From: Minisyncoccota bacterium
Lineage (GTDB): Bacteria > Patescibacteriota > Minisyncoccia > Phycocordibacterales > UBA9973
Length of the DNA: 64,000 nt
Direction of reading: 5' to 3'
NCBI GenBank assembly: GCA_041650615.1
Contig: JBAZKU010000001.1
Span: 319,277 to 383,276, forward strand
In this document: in pieces, positions 9,092 to 56,369 of the stretch
Layout: the number at the start of each line of letters is the position of its first letter
Position numbering within the stretch: the stretch's first letter is position 1
Notes under the pieces: generated by a model
Told to the model about the DNA's origin: nothing
The model's input: the letters and a program-made list of their open reading frames with translations, nothing else
Databases searched by the model: none
Made by a program: the position numbers and the translations under genes

Positions 9092-9120
9092 AGTATACCC
9101 CCACACCTATTTTTTGTCAA
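9092..9120 (-). promoter_or_regulatory. sigma-70-like promoter upstream of rpoB (TTGACA-N17-TATACT on minus strand)
   Basis: Minus strand reads TTGACAaaaaataggtgtgggggTATACT; located ~115 nt upstream of the rpoB start codon. Confidence 0.4.
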
Positions 9121-9588: not shown

Positions 9589-9660
9589 ATTATACATGGG
9601 GATTATTTCCCCCTTTTCCACACCAGTAGTAAAGCAAGGCACACTACGGGGCAGGCTCTT

Positions 9661-16036: not shown

Positions 16037-16068
16037 TATACACATATACGCTATAGCGTATATGTGTA
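16037..16068. promoter_or_regulatory. Perfect 32-bp palindrome ATACACATATACGC-TATA-GCGTATATGTGTAT in the promoter region of the Cas2/VapD-like gene (putative operator)
   Basis: 14-bp arms around TATA, 19-50 nt upstream of the start codon; a degenerate copy (ACACATATACGCcatgGCGTAaATGgGg) lies just downstream of the gene at 15602-15628. Confidence 0.5.
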
Positions 16069-16120
16069 TTATCACACTAAAGTGATTTATTTACTAAAAT
16101 AGGCAAAGAAAAGAAAATTA

Positions 16121-24316: not shown

Positions 24317-26233
24317 TTAGCGTATTTGCCAACTTGAATTTTCGCTTATTTTATGGCCTATTTTAGCCATAATTTCGTTTACCTCATCGTCTTTTAAAGT
24401 TCTTTCATAAGACTGGAAAACGAGCCTAAAAGCATATGAAGTTTTTCCATTTTTTGTGAACGAATCAAATATATACGGCTCTTGAATTAAAAGTTTTGTT
24501 CCATTATCTTTTAAAATTTTTCCCAATTTTTTAGGATCTTCTCCTTCCGGCATCCACACAGCAACGTCGCGAGAGATAAATGGATAAATAGACCAAGGTT
24601 TGAATTTCATCGGCAGAATCTTTTTTTCAGGTCCTCGGTTCCCTGGGTCCCCTACCCCAGCCAGACCATTCAAAAAAGTTTCTGCCGATTTCATGTCCTG
24701 AAAAAATTCATCAAGTGTCATTTCTTTTATTCCTTTCTTGTCGCCATAGGCAATATGCATCTCTTCCCCGCTTTTTTTGAAAATAGTTCCAATTTCAAAA
24801 ATTTTTACATCATTCATTTCAAGCAATGGCGCGTTGAGTTGATTTAATTTCAAGCTTTCTTCTAACCCATCGGCTAAATTTGTTCTCAAAAACTTTTTAT
24901 CCGAGGCGGAAGCAAGCACTTCCACTTCTCCTTTGTCTCTGAAACTATAAGTCATTACTTCTGAATATCCTTCATTTAAAAGTTTATTGCGAACCCAAAG
25001 GATTTTATAAAAATCTTCATTTATTTTTGGGGTCCATTTTATTTCAGGCCCGCCTGCATCGTTATGCGAAGCATTTCGGGCAGGTAATTCTCCCTTAATT
25101 CTGTCATAGCCTAAAATTCTAATTACTTCTTCGGATAAATCATGCGGGCCGGTGATATCAAGACGCGACAATGGCACTAAAATTTTAAACCTGCCTGCGC
25201 AGGCAGGTTCGCCATTTTCTTCTTCATATTCAAAATTTAATTTTTCCCACACATTTTCAATTTCTTTTTTTGAAAAAGAAGTGCCTAAACGTTTATTTAT
25301 ATATTCTACCGACACAAAAACAGTATTTTGTTTTGGCTTTACCGGATAAATATCCACAACTTCTTCTACATCCCCTCCTGTTAAATCAACAATTAAATTT
25401 GTCATTTCCTCCATAGTTTGCCCACAGAGGTCGGGAGTTATTTCATTCTCGTATCTTTTTACTGCATCGGTTAGAATCCCGATTTTTTGGGAAGTCTTTC
25501 TGGTAGAAATAGGATTGAAATTGGCAACTTCTATAACTATATTTTTTGTATTATTTTTTACTTCTGCTTTTATTCCTCCTTTTATTCCAGCAATAGCCAA
25601 TGGATCTTTTTCATCAGCTATTATTAAAACTGATTCATCTAAGATAACTTCTTTTTTATCAAGAGTAGTGATTTTTTCTCCTTTTTGGGCATTTCGAACT
25701 ATTATTTTTTCACTCTCCAATTTATCTAAATCAAAACAATGAATTGGCTGGCCCAAATCAAACATCACAAAATTAGCAGCATCCACAAGATTATTTATTG
25801 ATTTTTGTCCTATTACTTCCAATTTTTCTTTTAGCCAATCCGGACTTTCCCCAACTTTTACATTTCTGACAATTCGCCCCATGTAACGCAAGCATTTGTC
25901 GTCTTTTATTTCTATTTCCAGTTTCGAGTCAATGTGGCTTTTCGAATGGTCTGGCCGGGGCTGGGGCCCCGGAGATCCGAGGACCTGAGAAAAACCACTT
26001 GGCGAAGAAATTGGGAGATTAAAAATCGCCGAAATTTCTTTAGCAATTCCAAAATGCGAAAGACAGTCGTGGGCTCTGTCCGGCAAGACTTTAATTTCAA
26101 AAACAGTATCTTTTCCTACTTTTTCTATTTCCTCTACTTCAAAAGAATGAAAAACAATACCCTCGGCGATTTTCTCCGGTTTCGGCAATTTTTCTTTAAA
26201 ATAATTTTGTAGCCAATTGTAAGATATTTTCAT
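24317..26233 (-). CDS. pheT: Phenylalanyl-tRNA synthetase beta subunit (shortened form) carrying an in-frame insert
   Basis: MKISYNWLQNYFK... tRNA-binding N-terminus, B3/4 and B5 regions; ~29-aa low-complexity insertion SSPSGFSQVLGSPGPQPRPDHSKSHIDSK encoded by a GC-rich element. Confidence 0.9.
   Translation of the reverse strand: MKISYNWLQNYFKEKLPKPEKIAEGIVFHSFEVEEIEKVGKDTVFEIKVLPDRAHDCLSHFGIAKEISAIFNLPISSPSGFSQVLGSPGPQPRPDHSKSHIDSKLEIEIKDDKCLRYMGRIVRNVKVGESPDWLKEKLEVIGQKSINNLVDAANFVMFDLGQPIHCFDLDKLESEKIIVRNAQKGEKITTLDKKEVILDESVLIIADEKDPLAIAGIKGGIKAEVKNNTKNIVIEVANFNPISTRKTSQKIGILTDAVKRYENEITPDLCGQTMEEMTNLIVDLTGGDVEEVVDIYPVKPKQNTVFVSVEYINKRLGTSFSKKEIENVWEKLNFEYEEENGEPACAGRFKILVPLSRLDITGPHDLSEEVIRILGYDRIKGELPARNASHNDAGGPEIKWTPKINEDFYKILWVRNKLLNEGYSEVMTYSFRDKGEVEVLASASDKKFLRTNLADGLEESLKLNQLNAPLLEMNDVKIFEIGTIFKKSGEEMHIAYGDKKGIKEMTLDEFFQDMKSAETFLNGLAGVGDPGNRGPEKKILPMKFKPWSIYPFISRDVAVWMPEGEDPKKLGKILKDNGTKLLIQEPYIFDSFTKNGKTSYAFRLVFQSYERTLKDDEVNEIMAKIGHKISENSSWQIR
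25918..26014. mobile_element. GC-rich palindromic in-frame insertion element inside pheT (copy 1 of 2)
   Basis: Core GGTCTGGCCGGGGCTGGGGCCCCGGAGATCCGAGGACCT (25949-25987) identical, except a 1-nt indel, to a segment inside ligA; imperfect terminal inverted repeats CCAGTTTCGAGTCAATGTGGC / GCCACTTGGCGAAGAAATTGG; translated through in frame. Confidence 0.55.
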
Positions 26234-30093: not shown

Positions 30094-30296
30094 AGTAATA
30101 TTATACTCTATAAAAAATAAAGACCAAAAAACAGAAATCCCCGTTAAGAATAATTTTTAGAAAGCCTTGCGCAGGAGTTTAGAAAATAAAAATGGTGTTC
30201 CATTTATTATTTTCTTGAACGACGAGCAGTTCGCTGGCGAAGCTTCGCCAGATAGATTGCTTTATAAAAATTGATTCTTCATGGAGATTTTATCTC

Positions 30297-36328: not shown

Positions 36329-38950
<2,622 letters not shown>

Positions 38951-38963
<13 letters not shown>

Positions 38964-39544
38964 TTAAATAAATTTTCTGAAAAAACAATGCTATAAGATC
39001 CGGATCCCTGAGTCCATGAAACAGTTGAAGAAATCTTTATTTCATTTGCGCTTACTGTGGTTGCTTGTATCGTACGAGTAAAACCAGAATAAACACCGCT
39101 TGAATTAGTATTATAGTTTCCGTTATTTACATATAATTTGCATTGATTAATGTGTGTAGAACACAGAAAGATAGAAGCTGGGTTAGTCAAAGAAACCGAA
39201 GTGTCAAAACCGCAGCTGTTACCGGCACTACATGGAGATAATTTGGCTATAAAAGAATTCCAGGTAAGCGAAGTGGTGCCTGTGTATAAAACATAACTGT
39301 CCCGCATATTCCTAACATATTCAATGCCCTCCTGTGCCAAATACGAAGCTATTATTTTTGTTTTGGCATAGTTTGTATTGGAAATTCCACTGCCTAAAAT
39401 AGTCATTAAAGCTACAATGGATACAGAAAAAATTGAAATAGCAACAAGTGTTTCAACTAAAGTAAAACCGCCCCCCTTTGGGGTCACACCAAATTTTGGT
39501 GTGCGGGTAAACCCTTTATTGTTTTGTTTAAAATACTTTTTCAT
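38951..39544 (-). CDS. Pseudopilin (prepilin-type N-terminal cleavage/methylation domain) with palindromic insert in leader
   Basis: KGF-TRTPKFGVTPKGGGF-TLVETLVAISIF: canonical GFTLVE preceded by a 15-aa duplication-like insert encoded by a palindrome. Confidence 0.7.
39462..39514. mobile_element. In-frame palindromic insert at the G-F-T codons of pseudopilin 38951..39544 with flanking GTAAAACC/GTAAACCC direct repeats
   Basis: Palindrome CACACCAAA-T-TTTGGTGTG (39485-39503); repeats at 39462-69 and 39507-14 (mRNA sense GGGTTTAC / GGTTTTAC). Confidence 0.55.
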
Positions 39545-39550
39545 ATTATT

Positions 39551-40195
39551 TTAAAGCACAACATCTACTGTTCGTTGCGATATTGAAGTTTGTAGTGAAA
39601 AAGGCGTAACAACGTTTTTATAAGTTATGGTTCCGATTAATCTGATTATTATAAACGGTTGCCGCGTATCGCCCAACGGAGGTTCAGCCCCAACTACCGA
39701 AAAGCTGGAAACTAGGTCAATTTTGATTTCGGGAGGGGTAAGCACTGTAAAAGTTCCAGAAGCTCCGCCAGAAACAGATTTTTGAATACTGCCGTCAGAG
39801 AGTATTACATATACCCATTGGTCTCCAAGAGTAGTTTTGAAAGAAATTCCTGCTCCAGTAGCGCAACTATGGGGATTGGAAGCGGTAACATCACCATCAT
39901 CTATGCAGTGATAATCATATCCTGTTCGTAAATTTTTTGACATATCTTCCATAATAAAACTTAAATTATCTATAATGGAACGCATGTTTTGAGATTTCGC
40001 GTGAAGCAAACTGGCATTCAAGAGAGTGCCTACTCCAATCATAATAACTATCAAAAAAAGAGAAATAGCTATCATGGTTTCTATTATGGTAAACCCACAC
40101 ACTAACTTTTTTTTACTTTTAAAAGTTAGTGTGTGGGTAAACCCCCTACTTTTAGTATTAACTTTTTTAAAAAATTTTCTCATATTTTTTTTCAT
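39551..40195 (-). CDS. Pseudopilin with palindromic insert in leader
   Basis: RGF-THTLTFKSKKKLVCGF-TIIETMIAISLF: GFTIIE motif preceded by 16-aa insert. Confidence 0.7.
   Translation of the reverse strand: MKKNMRKFFKKVNTKSRGFTHTLTFKSKKKLVCGFTIIETMIAISLFLIVIMIGVGTLLNASLLHAKSQNMRSIIDNLSFIMEDMSKNLRTGYDYHCIDDGDVTASNPHSCATGAGISFKTTLGDQWVYVILSDGSIQKSVSGGASGTFTVLTPPEIKIDLVSSFSVVGAEPPLGDTRQPFIIIRLIGTITYKNVVTPFSLQTSISQRTVDVVL
40088..40144. mobile_element. In-frame palindromic insert (48 bp incl. one repeat copy) at the G-F-T codons of pseudopilin 39551..40195, flanked by 9-bp direct repeat GGTAAACCC
   Basis: Perfect 17-bp inverted repeat CCCACACACTAACTTTT / AAAAGTTAGTGTGTGGG with 10-nt spacer; direct repeats 40088-96 and 40136-44. 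Confidence 0.6.
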
Positions 40196-40231
40196 ACCTG
40201 TCCCGTACTGAGCTTCGCTCTAGTATTGGGG

Positions 40232-40855
40232 CTAATTTATCTGAATTCTTCCCGAAGGATATACTCGGATATATGCTTTTATTAATGAAGGGGAAGAAAT
40301 AGTAATTTGCATATAATCAAAACCGACCAATAGTGAACCATTGGATTTAAAAACTGCGCCGGAATCTGGTCTCTTGAAAGTGATAGATATTGGATTTGTA
40401 ATCAAATAAGGAATGGAGCTTGCATAACCTTCTATCTGCGATATGTAATTCCCTTTTGTTATACTTATACTATTTAAACATTCTCCGACACAAGCAGAAT
40501 CTTCAAAAGAATTATCATTATTGAGGTCCGTAAAATAAATAAAATTTTTATTACTGGAAGGATTAAAATAAACCCCATAGGCCGGTTTCCATGGATCTAC
40601 TGTGGGAAGTTTGCCGGATGGAAGCAACTCGCCGGACAAAGCTGATTTTTGCGCCTCAACAATCCTTAAGGCAATATCATTAGCTAACACTCTTATATCC
40701 ACTTTCTCTTCAAACTTATCATAATTAAAAAGAACAATGGAAGTCATTATGGAAAAAATACTTAGAACCACTATGAGTTCCACGTAAGTCATGCCTGCTT
40801 GCCGGCAGATAAACTTTTGTTTTTTTTTGTTTATATTTTTATATAATTGAAACAT
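40232..40855 (-). CDS. Pseudopilin (GMTYVEL prepilin motif), no insert
   Basis: QAGMTYVELIVVLSIFSIMTSIVLF N-terminal class III signal peptide-like helix. Confidence 0.65.
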   Translation of the reverse strand: MFQLYKNINKKKQKFICRQAGMTYVELIVVLSIFSIMTSIVLFNYDKFEEKVDIRVLANDIALRIVEAQKSALSGELLPSGKLPTVDPWKPAYGVYFNPSSNKNFIYFTDLNNDNSFEDSACVGECLNSISITKGNYISQIEGYASSIPYLITNPISITFKRPDSGAVFKSNGSLLVGFDYMQITISSPSLIKAYIRVYPSGRIQIN

Positions 40856-40861
40856 TTTTTA

Positions 40862-41653
40862 TTAGAAACCAGTCGGGAAAAGATGCAATTCAAAAAGAAA
40901 TGCAATCAATACACCAAGAACTAAAAATGGAGCAAATGAAATTTCACTTTTCATTCCATACTTTTTTGAAAAAACGATAAGGAGAAATCCTATTATCGCC
41001 CCCGACCAAAAAGCCATTACTGCACCTGAAAGAATTCTATTAAATCCGAGGAGCCATCCCAACCCTAAAGCTAATTTAGCATCCCCAAGACCCATCCAAG
41101 TGCCGGAAGACACAAGCCAAATAAGCGCAAAGGGCAGAGCTAATAGTATCCCCGACAAAAATTCTAAAATGGATGGAAGATGAATATAAAATCCATATTC
41201 CGTAAAGAAAAACAGTCCAATAAAAGCTACAATACCAAAAATAAGAGATAAGATGTCAGGAATTACTTTATGTTTGAAATCATAAACCGCAATAACCAAG
41301 AGAAGAGAAAACATCACGGCATAATAGGCGTAAGAAACGGAAAACACAAGCGTGTTTATGAAAAAAACATCTTGAAACTTTAAAAATAACCCCGCAAAAA
41401 TCAATCCTGATATAAGTTCCACTATCGGATATTGAATAGAGATTTTGGTTTTGCAATTTTTGCATCTTCCTCTTAGGGCAAAAAAACTAATTAGAGGAAT
41501 AAGTTCATACCAACAAAGTTTGTTTTGGCAAGTCATACATCCGCTTCTTCCACCGAAAGAGCGTGCTGTATTAAATCTGAATATGACAACATTTAAAAAA
41601 CTTCCGATAATAAGACCAAAAATAAAGAAAACAATTGTTAGAAAAAAAGTCAT
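40862..41653 (-). CDS. pilD: Prepilin peptidase PilD (A24 family aspartic peptidase/N-methyltransferase)
   Basis: N-terminal TM + Zn-binding CxxC...CxxC (CMTCQNKL...CKNCKTKI), polytopic body with conserved Asp-containing helices. Confidence 0.9.
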   Translation of the reverse strand: MTFFLTIVFFIFGLIIGSFLNVVIFRFNTARSFGGRSGCMTCQNKLCWYELIPLISFFALRGRCKNCKTKISIQYPIVELISGLIFAGLFLKFQDVFFINTLVFSVSYAYYAVMFSLLLVIAVYDFKHKVIPDILSLIFGIVAFIGLFFFTEYGFYIHLPSILEFLSGILLALPFALIWLVSSGTWMGLGDAKLALGLGWLLGFNRILSGAVMAFWSGAIIGFLLIVFSKKYGMKSEISFAPFLVLGVLIAFLFELHLFPTGF

Positions 41654-41656
41654 ATT

Positions 41657-42160
41657 TTATGGACAAGCATAGCTAGAACCCGCCAAAACAGCAGTAACCT
41701 GTTTTGAAGCCCCAGTGGAATCAACGCACCAAGCGACAATAGAACCAGAAGCAGAAGCCTTGAGCGGAACAAAGGCTGCCCAAGCACTTGCGTTATCGTG
41801 ACATTGCGCAGTATTCCATGTGCTTGCTGTAGCATCTGCGTATGTTGTAACGCTTCCGTCATAAGTATTTTCAGCGGCATTTACCATAGTGCCAATAACA
41901 TTAGAACCTGAAGTAGCACAAACTCCTTCATATGTTCCAGTAGCACTATTGAGGTAAAAAACCTCTGCTTGTGCGCGGGCATTGGCTAAATTGGATTTTA
42001 TATTCGCATCAGAACCTTTTGACCTGGCACTGTTGAGTGAAGCTAAAACCACACTTGCCAAAATACCGATTATGGCAACTACGACCAAAAGTTCAATTAA
42101 TGTAAAACCGGACACTTTACTTGAAAGCGTGTGGTTAAAACCTTTTTTAAATAAATTCAT
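41657..42160 (-). CDS. Type IV pilin paralog 2 with 11-codon palindromic insert splitting the GFTLIE motif (likely start MNLFKKGF...; track ORF extends to 42211)
   Basis: MNLFKKGF-NHTLSSKVSGF-TLIELLVVVAIIGILASVVLASLNSAR...; first 8 and following 30+ residues identical to neighbouring pilin 42283..42771 except for the insert. Confidence 0.8.
   Translation of the reverse strand: MNLFKKGFNHTLSSKVSGFTLIELLVVVAIIGILASVVLASLNSARSKGSDANIKSNLANARAQAEVFYLNSATGTYEGVCATSGSNVIGTMVNAAENTYDGSVTTYADATASTWNTAQCHDNASAWAAFVPLKASASGSIVAWCVDSTGASKQVTAVLAGSSYACP
42103..42142. mobile_element. 33-bp in-frame insert in pilin paralog 2, flanked by 7-bp direct repeat TAAAACC (mRNA sense GGTTTTA)
   Basis: Plus strand TAAAACC-GGACACTTTACTTGAAAGCGTGTGGT-TAAAACC; insert has imperfect inverted ends ACACGCTTT/AAAGTGT; the uninterrupted paralog has a single GGTTTTACA at the same place. 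Confidence 0.65.
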
Positions 42161-42229
42161 AATAAAAAACATGGTTAAACTAATAAAAAGACCTTTAAAT
42201 CTATTAATCAATTATATCAAATATAAAAA

Positions 42230-42282: not shown

Positions 42283-42771
42283 TTATGGACATGCATAAAC
42301 TCCAGATCCGAGAGATGTTGATTCTTTAGAGGCACCAGTAGAATCCACACACCAGCCCGAACTCGTAGTAGAACCTTTTAATGATACTATGGCTGCCCAA
42401 GCAGTCCCGCTGTCATGACACACTGCAGCAGTTGTAGCCCCTGCAGCGGGGGAAGCGTTATAAACCCAAATGGTTGAGGCAGGAGTTACAGTTGGAGTAC
42501 TAGCAGAATTAAGCTTTTGGGTAGCATTTAAGATTAAAGGATAAACACCGCCTGTAGTAGCAGACTGACATACGTTAGTATATGTCTGTCCTGAGTCATA
42601 GAACAACTCAGCCTGTGCACGAGCATTAGCCATTGCAGATTTTATAGCTGCATCTGTGCCTTTGGTTCTAGCACTGTTCAAGCTAGCTAACACAACGGAA
42701 GCCAAAATACCGATTATGGCAACTACGACCAAAAGTTCAATTAATGTAAAACCTTTTTTAAATAAATTCAT
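42283..42771 (-). CDS. Type IV major pilin (PilA-like), canonical MNLFKKGFTLIELLVVVAIIGILA
   Basis: Class III signal peptide with G-F-T-L-I-E, Cys pair near C-terminus; own promoter region and terminator (monocistronic). Confidence 0.85.
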   Translation of the reverse strand: MNLFKKGFTLIELLVVVAIIGILASVVLASLNSARTKGTDAAIKSAMANARAQAELFYDSGQTYTNVCQSATTGGVYPLILNATQKLNSASTPTVTPASTIWVYNASPAAGATTAAVCHDSGTAWAAIVSLKGSTTSSGWCVDSTGASKESTSLGSGVYACP

Positions 42772-42808
42772 AATTTTTTTTACTAATAATATTTCAGCCC
42801 TAGGCTGA

Positions 42809-42855
42809 TCCGCCTTTAGCGGAAACTAATAATTTTTTCTCCGCCTCTAGCGGAA
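42809..42855. promoter_or_regulatory. Two direct-repeat boxes TCCGCCT(T/C)TAGCGGAA, 31 bp apart, upstream of the major pilin gene
   Basis: 42809-42824 and 42840-42855; only GC-rich motifs in an AT-rich promoter region, ~40-85 nt upstream of the pilin start; candidate transcription-factor sites. Confidence 0.35.
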
Positions 42856-42969
42856 TTTTCGACTTATTCTCAATATCCTACTGTATTATAACTTTTATAA
42901 TCCCATATATGCAAAAAAGTTATCCACATATACAAAACAGGTTTTAAGAGCTAGTTACTTCCCTAATTT

Positions 42970-44178
42970 CTAACTTATTCCCCCTGCAATATTATAAATC
43001 GGCAACAAAATAGAAACTAAGAGAATCCCTACACCTAAACCTAAAACCACAATCATAACCGGTTCAATCAACCCAACCAAGGTGTCAACCGCATCATCAA
43101 CTTCTCGTTTATAAAAATCCGCCAGAGTCTTTAAAATCTCCCCCAGTGAACCTGTCTCTTCCCCAATTTTAATCATTTGTACCATAATGCCCGGAACTTG
43201 CGCTTCATGTCTCCCAAAAGCGATTGAAAAAGGCATACCTGACTTTACCCCTTCTGCCACATCCTTTAAAATTTCCATATAAACTCTACTACCAACAACT
43301 TCGGAAGTAATGTCTATTGACCGAACAATCGGAACACCTGAAGTAAGCATTGTATCCATATTATCCGCTATTCTGGAAAGGTAAAGTTTCCTATAAAGAT
43401 TACCCACTGCCGGTATAGAGAGACGCATTTTATCAAGATATATCTTGCCTTTCTCTGTGGAGGATAATCTCCACAACCATAAACCCAAAAGTACCAAGAA
43501 AATAATAACCAGGAAACCATAATTTACGAAAAAATCCGACATTCCGATAATTATCTGGGTGTAGATTGGCGCTTCTTGCCCTGAATCAAGAATAATAGCC
43601 GAAAGTTTCGGAATGACGACAACAAACATAAGTCCCATAACTACAAAAAATGTAACAATAACAAATATTGGATAAATGAGAGCATTCCTTGTTTTGGAAG
43701 TAAGCGCATATTGGCGGTTTAAATAATTTGCCAAATGGTCGAAGGTTTCATTTAACTTACCGGTTTCTTCTCCCACCTTAACCATATTAACGTAAAAATT
43801 TGAAAAAATATCCGGGTGTTTTGCCAAAGCGCCTGAAATGGAAATTCCGGCTTGGAGATCATCGCCTATTTCTGTAAGTTTTCTTGACAAGATTTTATTT
43901 TCTGTATTAGCGGCAAGCATAGTAAAGGCTTTAAGGGCGGAAACTTGCGCTTCAAATAAAGTTGAAATCTGACGGGAAAGAATAACAATTTCTTTCATCG
44001 GCACTTTTTGAGTAAAAGAAAAAGAAAAAAAAGATTTCTTTTTCCCTTCATCTTGAATGGAGATAATAATAAGCCCCCTCCTTTGAAGCCCGCTTATGGC
44101 TATGTCGCGATTTGGCGCGTCAATTTCTCCTTCTTTACTTATCCCCTTATCATCTACTGCTTTGTATTTGAATAACAT
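42970..44178 (-). CDS. pilC: Type IV pilus assembly platform protein PilC (GspF family)
   Basis: 402 aa, duplicated GspF domains with 3 TM helices. Confidence 0.88.
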   Translation of the reverse strand: MLFKYKAVDDKGISKEGEIDAPNRDIAISGLQRRGLIIISIQDEGKKKSFFSFSFTQKVPMKEIVILSRQISTLFEAQVSALKAFTMLAANTENKILSRKLTEIGDDLQAGISISGALAKHPDIFSNFYVNMVKVGEETGKLNETFDHLANYLNRQYALTSKTRNALIYPIFVIVTFFVVMGLMFVVVIPKLSAIILDSGQEAPIYTQIIIGMSDFFVNYGFLVIIFLVLLGLWLWRLSSTEKGKIYLDKMRLSIPAVGNLYRKLYLSRIADNMDTMLTSGVPIVRSIDITSEVVGSRVYMEILKDVAEGVKSGMPFSIAFGRHEAQVPGIMVQMIKIGEETGSLGEILKTLADFYKREVDDAVDTLVGLIEPVMIVVLGLGVGILLVSILLPIYNIAGGIS

Positions 44179-50173: not shown

Positions 50174-50833
50174 ATGCATTTCTTAAACACTATATTAGAC
50201 ATAGTTTTCCCTGTGAATTGCGTTTCGTGTGAGAAAAGGGGTTCGGATTTATGCTTAAAATGCCTTTTAGGCTCTCCAGCCGCAGAACGAGAAAGCGCTA
50301 ATTGGATATTTCCATTATTTGACTATCGTCATTTGCCCATTAAGAAATCAATTTGGCTTTTAAAATACAAGGGTAAAAAAAGACTGGCTGGTATTTTTGC
50401 GGAGATTTTATATGAAAGAATTATAGAAGAACTTTCAGAATTAAGCCTAATGGAAAATTTTCGCCAGCCGGTTTTAATTCCCATTCCCCTCTCTAAAAAA
50501 AGATACAGGGAACGCGGATATAATCAGGCAGAATTAATTTGCAGAGAATTAATAAAAATAAATAATCTGCGCCATGGCGCAGATTTAAAATTAGAGAAAA
50601 ATATTTTAATAAAAATAAAAGAAACGGAACATCAAGCAAATATTAAAGACCGGAAGGATAGATTAAAAAATCTCGCTAATTCTTTTTCGGTAAAAAATTC
50701 CGAGCGGATAAAGGGCAAAAATATAATTTTAATAGACGATGTCACCACTACCGGAGCGACATTGGTTGAAGCCAAAAAAATATTAAAACAATCCGGCGCT
50801 AAAAAAGTAATCGCTTTCACCGTGGCGCATTAA
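50174..50833 (+). CDS. comFC: ComF-family protein (ComFC-like phosphoribosyltransferase domain with N-terminal Cys4 Zn finger)
   Basis: CVSCEKRGSDLCLKCL zinc ribbon; PRTase motif IILIDDVTTTGATL. Confidence 0.8.
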   Translation: MHFLNTILDIVFPVNCVSCEKRGSDLCLKCLLGSPAAERESANWIFPLFDYRHLPIKKSIWLLKYKGKKRLAGIFAEILYERIIEELSELSLMENFRQPVLIPIPLSKKRYRERGYNQAELICRELIKINNLRHGADLKLEKNILIKIKETEHQANIKDRKDRLKNLANSFSVKNSERIKGKNIILIDDVTTTGATLVEAKKILKQSGAKKVIAFTVAH

Positions 50834-52133: not shown

Positions 52134-52886
52134 ATGAAAATCAACGTCACAATCATAGGTTTTGGCACAATGGGCAGAGCTATAGCAAAAACACTTTTGA
52201 AGGATTCTTCAATCAAAATTTTTACTATTGATATAGATAAAAAAAACACAAGTGGTATTAAAAAATCCGACTTTATAATATTGGCTGTAAAACCACAAGA
52301 CGCGCAGGAAGCAATTAAGCAATTAATAAAATACGAATTGAATGAAAAAACAATATTAATTTCAATCATGGCTGGTTTTTCCATTAAAAAACTTCTTCGC
52401 TTCTCCGGCCATAAAAAAATTGTAAGAATGATGCCGAACTTAGGCATTTCTGTCGGGGCAGGAATTGCCGTTTGGAAGAAAATAGGTTTATCTAAATCAG
52501 AAACCAAAAAGACAAAAAATTTCATAAATAAAATAACCGAAAATTTTGAAGTAAAAGATGAAAATACTATAAATAAAGTTACAGCCATTTCCGGTAGTGG
52601 TCCGGCCTACTTTTTTCTTTTGGCGGATTGTTTAATTAAAGCTTCAGAAAATCTCGGGTTTACAAAAAATGAAAGCCAAAAACTTATTGAAAAAACTTTT
52701 TTGGCATCTGCTATATTAGGGAAGGATTCTGATTATTCCGCTCTTGTAAAAAAAGTTGCTTCCAAGGGTGGCACAACAGAGGCAGCGCTAAAAATTTTCA
52801 AAAATAAAAATTTTGATAAGATCGTGTCAAAAGCCGTTCTCGCCGCTTATAAAAGAGCTAAGGAAATTTCCCTAAGTCGGACATAG
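52134..52886 (+). CDS. proC: Pyrroline-5-carboxylate reductase (ProC)
   Basis: Rossmann IGFGTMGRAIA; C-terminal dimerisation region SGSGPAYFFLLADCL...GGTTEAAL. Confidence 0.85.
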   Translation: MKINVTIIGFGTMGRAIAKTLLKDSSIKIFTIDIDKKNTSGIKKSDFIILAVKPQDAQEAIKQLIKYELNEKTILISIMAGFSIKKLLRFSGHKKIVRMMPNLGISVGAGIAVWKKIGLSKSETKKTKNFINKITENFEVKDENTINKVTAISGSGPAYFFLLADCLIKASENLGFTKNESQKLIEKTFLASAILGKDSDYSALVKKVASKGGTTEAALKIFKNKNFDKIVSKAVLAAYKRAKEISLSRT

Positions 52887-52913
52887 GGGAATTCCCCTAT
52901 GTCCGACTTAGGG
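52870..52913 (+). promoter_or_regulatory. 44-nt perfect palindrome spanning the proC stop codon and abutting the proA SD
   Basis: CCCTAAGTCGGACATAGGGGAATTCCCCTATGTCCGACTTAGGG; proC TAG at 52884-86 lies in the 5' arm, GGGGAG SD of proA overlaps the 3' arm; no U-run. Confidence 0.6.
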
Positions 52914-56265: not shown

Positions 56266-56369
56266 GAAATTATGATACCATATATTTTAAACTGACAGAA
56301 TAGATAAAAAATATATACCCTATAGTAGAATTTTTTGCAAAAAATTTCACTACGGGGTATACTGAAACA

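Follow-up and report, generated by a model that had tools for sequence, protein, structure and literature searches.

A type IV pilus locus with interrupted prepilin genes

The 64-kb stretch of a Minisyncoccota genome analyzed here (GenBank contig JBAZKU010000001.1; the whole stretch is called the window, and coordinates refer to it) carries on its minus strand a type IV pilus gene cluster in which three prepilin genes, denoted g1, g2 and g3, are interrupted by short palindromic inserts within the leader-coding region. We believe, with a probability of about 0.75, that these three inserts are miniature, non-autonomous derivatives, reduced to the terminal repeats, of a mobile family that is common in Patescibacteria and whose full-length form encodes an 84-amino acid (aa) GIY-YIG nuclease. 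The genome is low in GC (~36%), and its closest relatives are metagenome-assembled genomes of Candidatus Nomurabacteria or Paceibacterota; the platform protein PilC, used as the query for retrieving 80 orthologous Nomurabacteria loci, is 72-88% identical across them. Loci numbered with an L are sequences fetched from such relatives or from metagenomes. The cluster runs in the order PilC, g4, g3, A24 prepilin peptidase, GMTYVE pseudopilin, g2, g1 and a PilX-like gene, and its genes and inserts are as follows.

42970..44178, minus strand: PilC platform protein (Pfam T2SSF, 9e-60)
42283..42771, minus strand: g4, major-pilin paralog without an insert; reads MNLFKKGFTLIELL, with the empty target site GGTTTTAC at 42746-42753
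41657..42160, minus strand (true ATG 42160, stop 41657): g3, major-pilin paralog with a 33-nucleotide (nt) in-frame leader insert; N_methyl at residues 14-39
42107..42135, minus strand: decayed hairpin element in g3, 29 nt, ACCACACGCTTT-CAAGT-AAAGTGTCCGGT; TTTA at 42136-42139 and 42103-42106
40862..41653, minus strand: prepilin peptidase, PilD-type A24 (Pfam A24_N_bact, 8e-30; Peptidase_A24, 1e-9)
40232..40855, minus strand: pseudopilin of the GMTYVELIVV class without an insert of the kind found in g1-g3 (open reading frame; N_methyl 18.8 bits)
39551..40195, minus strand: g2, pseudopilin of the GFTIIETMIAISLF class with a 48-nt in-frame leader insert (open reading frame; N_methyl at residues 33-53)
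40094..40137, minus strand: hairpin element in g2, 44 nt, CCCACACACTAACTTTT / AAAAGTTAGTGTGTGGG, a perfect 18-bp stem; TTTA at 40138-40141 and 40090-40093
38951..39544, minus strand: g1, pseudopilin of the GFTLVETLVAISIF class with a 45-nt in-frame leader insert (open reading frame; N_methyl at residues 25-46)
39467..39507, minus strand: hairpin element in g1, 41 nt, CCCGCACACCAAA-A-TTTGGTGTG, with an inner CCCC-AAA-GGGG mini-hairpin, then GGCGGT; TTTA at 39508-39511 and 39463-39466

The encoded proteins have the features of type IV prepilins, namely, a short basic leader, the motif G-F(M/Y)-T-L-x-E, a hydrophobic helix, and a prepilin peptidase encoded nearby. With the Pfam N_methyl threshold at 21.2 bits, g1, g3 and g4 pass, and g2 (19.6) and the gene at 40232-40855 (18.8) fall just under it; in g1, g2 and g3 the alignment falls on the downstream of the two G-F pairs, and all five prepilins match there.

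As the initial annotation had described, the inserts lie between the G-F and T codons, in frame in all three genes, and one paralog, g4, is empty. The products read KGF-TRTPKFGVTPKGGGF-TLVE (g1), RGF-THTLTFKSKKKLVCGF-TIIE (g2) and MNLFKKGF-NHTLSSKVSGF-TLIELL (g3), and g4 and g3 share identical DNA for 28 nt on the upstream side of the insert and 46 nt on its downstream side, such that g4 represents the empty site. Folded as single-stranded DNA, the g2 hairpin is strongly stable (-18.8 kcal/mol, z = -5.7; none of 200 shuffles equally stable) and g1 forms a moderate double hairpin (-12.8 kcal/mol, z = -2.2); g3 is decayed, and its folding (-5.2 kcal/mol, z = -1.6) is not significant alone. Throughout the 64 kb, hairpins of the form CACAC...GTGTG are confined to the genes with inserts (3 matches, 2 of them overlapping in g2, vs 0.64 expected), and GGKTTTAC occurs 12 times vs 4.4 expected.

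Just upstream of g4, at 42790-42860, there are three small GC hairpins, TCCGC-TAGAG-GCGGA, TCCGC-TAAAG-GCGGA and CAGCC-TA-GGCTG.

Empty and filled sites among relatives

When 81 Nomurabacteria sequences were scanned for prepilin N-termini, 349 motif matches were obtained; in 326, the motif leads into an open frame of 90 codons or more. Leader lengths fall mostly in the range of 5-13 residues. The sequence TTTA is present at 164 of the 326 sites, and inserts of the type found in g1-g3, which we call family A, occupy about 12 of the 326 (named: L001, L017 with three, L018, L020, L049, L057 and L075). Alignment of pilins from sister genomes, proposed in the initial annotation as a check, did yield uninterrupted alleles: the orthologs of g1 (class V) are empty in L064, L065, L063 and others, reading AAG GGG TTT ACA; in the window, L057 and L075 the site is filled. 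The g1 insert is identical at 39-40 of 40 positions among the three filled genomes, with adjoining flank DNA at 67-70%. Either a single variant entered this site independently, and recently, or the insert is strongly constrained.

The L001 ortholog of g2 carries a g2-like insert, and the THTLT..KKLVC element of g2 recurs in another paralog class in L018; the presence of the g2-type element in different paralog classes of different genomes implies movement between genes. Close relatives of the g3 element are found in major pilins of L017, L145 and L227. Between pilin copies, the stems show compensatory changes (CACAC/GTGTG vs CAGAC/GTCTG; TTTT/AAAA vs TTCT/AGAA). Judging from these alignments, we are dealing with insertion events and not with an old protein feature, as indicated by the empty and filled orthologs, the switch of paralog class, and flanks that track the local target. 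An exact 7-mer direct-repeat and hairpin scan of 1.23 Mb gave 39 matches vs 16-27 in shuffles, a high background, and was too strict because drift of the duplications hid most pilin copies.

A dispersed family of hairpins

Metagenome contigs scanned with the pattern TTTACCCNNACACN{5,35}GTGTNNGGNTTTAC contain at least 120 distinct copies of family A; the counts given below refer to the 120 copies listed. Nearly all are perfect hairpins with the consensus CCCCCACACC-loop-GGTGTGGGGG, and, like the 29-44-nt elements of the window, these copies have the form of MITEs (miniature transposable elements with inverted repeats), being short, non-coding, and bounded by complementary arms. They also share with MITEs a dispersed distribution that is polymorphic for presence and absence. 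Two stem positions were left free in the pattern, and these form Watson-Crick pairs in 95 of the 120 copies, vs 7.5 expected, with 7 pair types; this covariation implies that the hairpin structure is maintained.

Only 19 of the 120 copies lie in prepilin G-F-T sites. About 31 are in stretches without a spanning reading frame of at least 60 codons, and 64 lie within open frames of at least 120 codons, with both strands and several frames represented. For each of five host proteins examined, Pfam confirmed a real housekeeping gene: enolase, a Mur ligase (MurC-type), RecJ, a class II aldolase (FBA-II) and Mfd, in each of which the hairpin peptide is an in-frame insertion. A simple hairpin nearly identical to the g1 element occupies a non-pilin site in L122, and the termini of the g2 element recur at a non-pilin site in L186. 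The specificity for pilin genes suggested by the initial annotation is thus not borne out: ~84% of the listed copies are intergenic or reside in other genes, and the 4-bp target varies. What that annotation did recognize correctly is a family of tiny mobile hairpins with target duplication, in frame on the G-F-T codons and varying in presence among paralogs and orthologs.

The pilin copies stand apart in several respects. The sum of length and duplication is divisible by 3 in 19 of 19, compared with 53 of the 101 others; the free stem positions are Watson-Crick paired in 9 of 19 vs 86 of 101 (p = 8e-4); and the pilin copies fold less stably per nucleotide (p = 2e-7). Their commonest decay is GTGTG to GTGTC, which replaces Cys or Trp with Ser. 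This decay fits old, tolerated insertions that drift under protein-level selection and not a maintained regulatory hairpin.

As a negative control, a looser pattern that did not require the GTGT arm was run on viral contigs and gave 37 matches, with no pilin context and no hairpin except a doubtful one in L102; these matches are treated as chance, the hairpin of L102 being modest. Assemblies made independently in different studies contain the same inserts (window, L057 and L075; L001 and L139; L144 and L224).

A GIY-YIG gene between the same termini

Looking for unpaired ends in the fetched loci revealed longer units, in L133, L172 and L136, that have the same termini and enclose a small open reading frame for a GIY-YIG protein (Pfam E = 5e-18). 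The protein has 84 aa, with the Pfam GIY-YIG domain at residues 1-71 and no further domain except the overlapping T5orf172; no specific model for it was found in NCBIfam, and the nearest PDB entries are the UPF0213 proteins BH0048 and EF2693, and SLX1. A protein search recovered 641 relatives at E<=1e-8. Among the 120 matches listed, 84 residues is the usual length and identity to the query spans 74-100%; those with a named source come from Nomurabacteria, Paceibacterota and other Patescibacteria, with one from Candidatus Subteraquimicrobiales. The contigs of five of the relatives supplied further independent full-length loci.

In total, the GIY-YIG frame is bounded by the CCCCCACACC/GGTGTGGGGG termini in L133, L172, L136, L238, L246, L253, L256/L260 and L262, and it is the only open reading frame between the repeats in these 8 independent loci. 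Inverted copies of the repeat arm flank the gene on both sides in L133, L172, L136, L238, L246, L253, L256 and L262, and a complete hairpin adjoins it in L136. Most units are 315-318 bp long (285-371 bp overall), with inverted termini of 10-21 nt; in copies with clean ends, 42-46 nt separate the left end from the start of the frame, and 17-20 nt separate its stop from the right end. The short hairpins correspond to the left end plus the right end of full units, with L221 matching the termini of L256 and L169 those of L246, so that the family, as MITEs do, shares its termini with a longer coding element, here in 8 loci.

Perfect 4-nt direct repeats lie flush with the termini in 6 of 9 full-length copies, namely, TTTA, TTGA (two loci), TTAT, CCTA and ATAA. 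As each such match has a chance probability of 1/256, we conclude that these are 4-bp target-site duplications. The base after the repeat is C, except for T after CCTA (L253), and the base before it is often G.

Several observations adjoin these units. In the spacer after rpoB, at 9093-9115 of the window, GTATACCCCCACACCTATTTTTTG resembles the full-length left end (cf. L246, L262), with no right end or nuclease gene following; it may be a relic, and it does not fold (z -0.4). At three independent loci (L172 4528, L246 1772 and L256 2956), full-length GIY-YIG elements abut TTATCCACA(G/T), the DnaA-box consensus, two of them with the duplication TTAT/ATAA inside it. Hairpins nested in or abutting copies of the same family were seen at L164 ~1485, L146 4043 and L136 4560-4610, one of them beside the right end of a full-length element. 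Other small GIY-YIG genes, at L213 2543-2850 and L138 4492-4770, have different 15-nt inverted repeats, TCCAGCCCCACTTTT and ATCCCGTTAGAGAAA, which suggests that several nuclease-hairpin pairs exist in these communities.

A 4-bp duplication that rebuilds the cleavage motif

The direct repeats at the window inserts (GGGTTTACC/GGGTTTACC, 9/9, in g2; GGGTTTAC/GGTTTTAC, 7/8, in g1; GGTTTTAA/GGTTTTAC, 7/8, in g3) had been taken for a duplication of 8-9 bp, GG(G/T)TTTAC(C). We dropped that interpretation given that the downstream GG(G) belongs to the element, to judge from how non-pilin copies end and from the 4-bp repeats lying flush with full-length units. All three inserts parse as GGN TTTA [CCC...GGG] TTTA CN; the true target duplication in pilins is TTTA, 4 nt, and the downstream GG(G) is the element's own terminal G-run. 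The target-site duplication typical of MITEs is thus present as TTTA on both sides in g1, g2 and g3, and as TACA in L020, where the duplicated flank mirrors the local target (GGGTACAC at a G-Y-T site). Short copies with unforced flanks show TTTA/TTTA in L184, L165 and L226, and a 3/4 match or none in others; among the listed metagenome matches, GG precedes the left TTTAC in 13 of the 101 non-pilin copies.

Because the G-run of the element mimics the original Gly codon, insertion regenerates G-F-T beside the hydrophobic helix, and the old G-F joins a longer leader, which explains why such insertions survive in pilins. The earlier suggestion of altered processing by PilD finds nothing in its favor: N_methyl falls on the downstream site, and the extra residues would lie within the leader that is removed. 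From the motif match, PilD is expected to cut at the downstream site.

Three other interpretations of these flanks were considered and not retained. A symmetric hot spot of the Tn10 kind, used by a DDE-type enzyme, had been considered alongside the 8-9-bp duplication; the flanks do not agree with a mariner- or Correia-type TA duplication; and bypassing during translation, as in gene 60 or byp, which the direct repeats around a hairpin had brought to mind, was rejected since none of the pilin copies shifts the frame or contains a stop.

A possible mechanism and its alternatives

The following scenario probably accounts for these features. Loss of the interior from the ~315-bp element would bring the two terminal repeats together as a hairpin of ~25-60 nt. 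Insertion duplicates a 4-bp target, as a rule an AT-rich 4-mer with C after it and, often, G before it, and the prepilin codons GGN-TTT-ACN contain such a target, G-TTTA-C. The terminal G-run would then supply a new Gly codon before the duplicated TTT-AC, leaving G-F-T-L-x-E intact beside the helix. Copies that are free of stops and whose length plus 4 is divisible by 3 would merely lengthen the leader removed by PilD and, hence, would be tolerated and accumulate in several paralogs. The frequent occupation of pilins could then stem from the presence of G-TTTA-C, or a near variant, in every prepilin gene, with 4-8 such genes per genome, and from the harmlessness of the insertion. The GIY-YIG nuclease is the putative mobilizer of the hairpins, and it probably recognizes a hairpin or cruciform in single-stranded DNA by analogy with the Ssn nucleases, 94-aa single-domain GIY-YIG enzymes that cut single-stranded DNA beside a hairpin repeat (Chenal et al. 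2025, Nat Commun, PMC11893778).

The membership of the hairpins in one family, the 4-bp duplications, the termini shared with the GIY-YIG element, the empty and filled sites, and the stem covariation are direct observations. Several points weigh against the derivation of the inserts from the GIY-YIG element. GIY-YIG enzymes are not known to carry out strand transfer, and the nuclease could be cargo; tblastn found no GIY-YIG gene or full-length element in the 64-kb window; no clean duplication flanks 3 of the 9 full-length copies or several of the short ones; decay of the g3 element prevents its assignment to the family from its own statistics; and the near-identity of the g1 insert in three genomes could instead mean functional constraint. 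Furthermore, the scan pattern required TTTAC on both sides, a bias in the sample owing to which neither the apparent target preference nor the 16% share of pilins among the listed copies is a measured preference.

A bolder form of the scenario, to which we give somewhat less than even odds, is that the 84-aa GIY-YIG protein itself mobilizes a new class of prokaryotic transposon, which, at ~315 bp and with a 4-bp duplication, would be the smallest autonomous DNA transposon known; that housekeeping proteins in Patescibacteria routinely acquire 8-20 extra residues from its hairpin MITEs; and that the prepilin site is a self-repairing landing pad. It is unlikely, in our estimate, that the hairpins are mobile and the nuclease only a passenger or a homing-type rider, with insertion and the 4-bp duplication brought about by another transposase acting in trans (for example, of the DDE type) or by host repair. 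Such a division of labor would agree with the 4-bp duplication, which is typical of a staggered double-strand cut and fill-in by DDE transposases; with the nature of GIY-YIG enzymes, which, to our knowledge, are hydrolytic nucleases without known strand-transfer activity or chemistry; and with the existence of other GIY-YIG genes that have different inverted repeats or none (L213, L138, L003 and the second copy in L260). What speaks against it is that GIY-YIG is the sole frame in 8 independent loci, at a fixed distance from both ends, that the nuclease is highly conserved and abundant, that no transposase gene adjoins any copy in the gene tables, and that nucleases of the Ssn family recognize the hairpin repeats flanking them (PMC11893778). 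Selection by the host, with the inserts serving as a functional extension of the leader, or as structured RNA or DNA with a regulatory role in pilin expression, recombination or DNA uptake, is improbable, though it would accommodate the 97-100% identity of the g1 insert in three genomes with flanks at ~68%, the compensatory stem changes, the position of hairpins 25-40 nt past the start codon in several pilus genes, and the precedent of the NTS repeats of Neisseria, which modulate transformation and cluster near genes for surface proteins (PMC11893778). Under such selection one would not expect that only ~12 of 326 prepilin sites are occupied, patchily, with the closest relatives often empty, that unrelated genes and intergenic DNA contain these hairpins too, in both orientations, that the pilin copies are more decayed than the others and fold less well, or that flanking duplications point to insertion.

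The initial annotation had drawn an analogy with elements derived from IS200/IS605 (PATE) or with REP/RAYT hairpins, which would insert as single strands 3' of TTAC. Insertion of IS200/IS605 elements is not known to produce a target duplication, whereas 4-bp duplications of varying sequence are present here, in 6 of 9 full-length copies; the coding partner is GIY-YIG and not a Y1 HUH transposase (Y1_Tnp); and the targets include TTGA, TTAT, CCTA, ATAA and TACA. No Y1 or RAYT gene is present in the gene tables around the full-length copies, the rest of each genome lying outside that search. We therefore consider this origin very improbable, notwithstanding that the target in the pilin copies ends in TTAC, that the elements are short hairpins like REPs, and that a resemblance to REP/RAYT is noted for the Ssn repeats (PMC11893778). 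Least credible of all is that no mobile element is involved, with the palindromes arising by template switching or slippage at the quasi-palindromic GGGTTTACC and spreading by gene conversion, or being artefacts of assembly. The sequence GGTTTACC is indeed a near-palindrome, and the N-terminal coding DNA of pilins is highly repeated within a genome; nevertheless, hairpins of the same sequence are spread over many unrelated loci and genomes, between unrelated flanks, they form the termini of a coding element, the drop to ~68% identity directly outside the g1 insert leaves no conversion tract, and the same inserts are present in independent assemblies.

Relation to known systems

The closest described system is that of the Ssn nucleases and their NTS/SRM repeats, in which the nuclease genes are flanked by hairpin repeats in a layout that the authors call insertion sequence-like (PMC11893778). 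Common to both systems are a single-domain GIY-YIG protein of ~84-94 aa, flanking hairpin repeats of 20-50 nt that are also dispersed, and conservation of the hairpin structure. The hairpin sequences, however, are unrelated: the SRM consensus, HGTCWYN(0-2)YYVSBRHN(0-5)WNVSBRGN(0-2)RNCYNB, matches neither the window nor the three inserts, nor any of three full-length elements. In family A, the repeats coincide exactly with the inverted ends of a 315-bp unit flanked by 4-bp duplications, an arrangement not reported for Ssn, the terms 'duplication' and 'target site' being absent from the text of PMC11893778; the hosts are Patescibacteria, which the Ssn paper does not mention (PMC11893778); and many copies lie in frame inside genes, whereas NTS are rarely intragenic, with 2% so located in N. 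meningitidis (PMC11893778).

In behavior, the hairpins resemble the Rickettsia palindromic elements (RPEs), selfish palindromic repeats of a small genome that frequently enter housekeeping genes in frame, where they contribute a short peptide and leave the protein intact (PMC10969869). The likeness does not extend to membership: RPEs are three to five times longer, at ~100-150 bp compared with 25-60 nt here, and no coding partner sharing their ends, such as the one found here, is described for them in the review (PMC10969869). Insertion at a single protein motif that is rebuilt from the end of the element is, of the two, seen only here.

With REP/RAYT and IS200/IS605 (IS608 target TTAC), the family shares short hairpins, a short sequence 5' of the hairpin foot, and a small nuclease gene flanked by repeats. 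Recognition of hairpins in single-stranded DNA is a feature of those systems and, by analogy, may apply here, too. They employ a Y1 HUH transposase, and IS200/IS605 is not known to create a duplication, in contrast to the GIY-YIG protein and 4-bp duplication of family A, and REPs are extragenic, whereas the present hairpins are often intragenic. The palindromic G+C-rich clusters of yeast mitochondria likewise are GC-rich mini-hairpins in an AT-rich genome that have short AT-rich duplications and sometimes lie in frame (var1). They are organellar, and we know of no encoded nuclease partner and no sequence relationship to the hairpins described here. Literature searches found no earlier description of these elements in bacteria of the candidate phyla radiation (CPR) or in pilin genes.

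The doubled cleavage motifs of the pilins thus become linked to a general and apparently undescribed process, in which hairpin mini-elements insert in frame in essential genes of ultra-small bacteria. The 4-bp duplications, the empty and filled sites, and the covariation of the stems constitute evidence, at the sequence level, for transposition of hairpin repeats associated with tiny GIY-YIG nucleases; for the Ssn-associated repeats, transposition was a hypothesis only in the 2025 paper (PMC11893778). If the nuclease is indeed the mobilizer, this would offer a mechanism for the multiplication of Ssn-associated hairpin repeats in other bacteria, and, if the 84-aa protein is sufficient, it would constitute both a minimal transposon and a compact hairpin-guided DNA tool. 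There is a real chance that the family marks a new minimal class of transposon, the known kinds involved being MITEs, Ssn-type hairpin repeats and RPE-like in-frame insertion. For genome annotation, such inserts account for some of the unexplained insertions in CPR proteins and some lengthened pilin leaders; for pilus biology, they amount to a natural experiment in which the addition of 11-16 residues, a second G-F among them, is tolerated by the class III leader.

Other palindromic families

Palindromic sequences outside family A are also found in the window and its relatives. A second, unrelated family of ~80-100 nt, with the core AGGTCCTCGG..CCCC..GCCAGACC, is present at 37053-37153 in ligA and at 24611-24687 and 25939-25994 in pheT, thus lying in frame, in both orientations, in DNA ligase and the beta subunit of Phe-tRNA synthetase; a 7-nt direct repeat, ATGAAAT, flanks the copy at 24611-24687. 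Relatives of this family occur in L002 (at the same ligA site, 95% identical), L059, L076, L009, L027 and L008. At 37720-37755, also in frame within ligA, a perfect 36-nt palindrome without a loop, GCGAGGCAAGACCTAACG-CGTTAGGTCTTGCCTCGC, encodes 12 residues. Further perfect or near-perfect zero-loop palindromes of 18-44 nt are located at 16038-16069, 25188-25209, 30234-30251, 50564-50585, 52870-52913 and 56314-56361; those starting at 25188 and 50564 lie in coding frames, in pheT and in the gene at 50174-50833, respectively.

Hairpins of a third family start with (G)CCTG(C/T)CCCG and end with ..CGGGG. In the window, they are found at 40197-40237, where the copy fills the 36-nt spacer just upstream of g2, and at ~9610-9655; elsewhere, they are found in L002, L008, L012, L033, L039, L043, L068 and L076, and at L001 13669, L025 14027, L028 12965, L065 13015 and L063 16308. 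In other Nomurabacteria, members of this family occur in prepilin leaders directly before the Gly codon (K-A-C-P...R-R-G-F, with the insert ending ahead of the G), without duplication of G-F; one lies in ligA before G-F-G (L063), and two near-identical copies are in two pilin genes of L002.

Prepilin genes of relatives hold two additional kinds of insert. At G-F-T sites in L017 (12093), L049 (12789), L026 (4890) and L012 (12593), inserts of 75-100 nt fold as three-way junctions, with an outer stem and two inner hairpins; several compensatory changes distinguish L017 from L049, and the same type is present in different pilin classes across genomes. The GMTYVE pseudopilin in L028 (11265), L064 (11354) and L079 (9475) carries a different insert (GMT-HSMF..HPEYSR-GMT) with duplicated GGGATGAC(A) flanks; within it lies an inverted copy of the target, GTCATCCC, which could pair with either flank.

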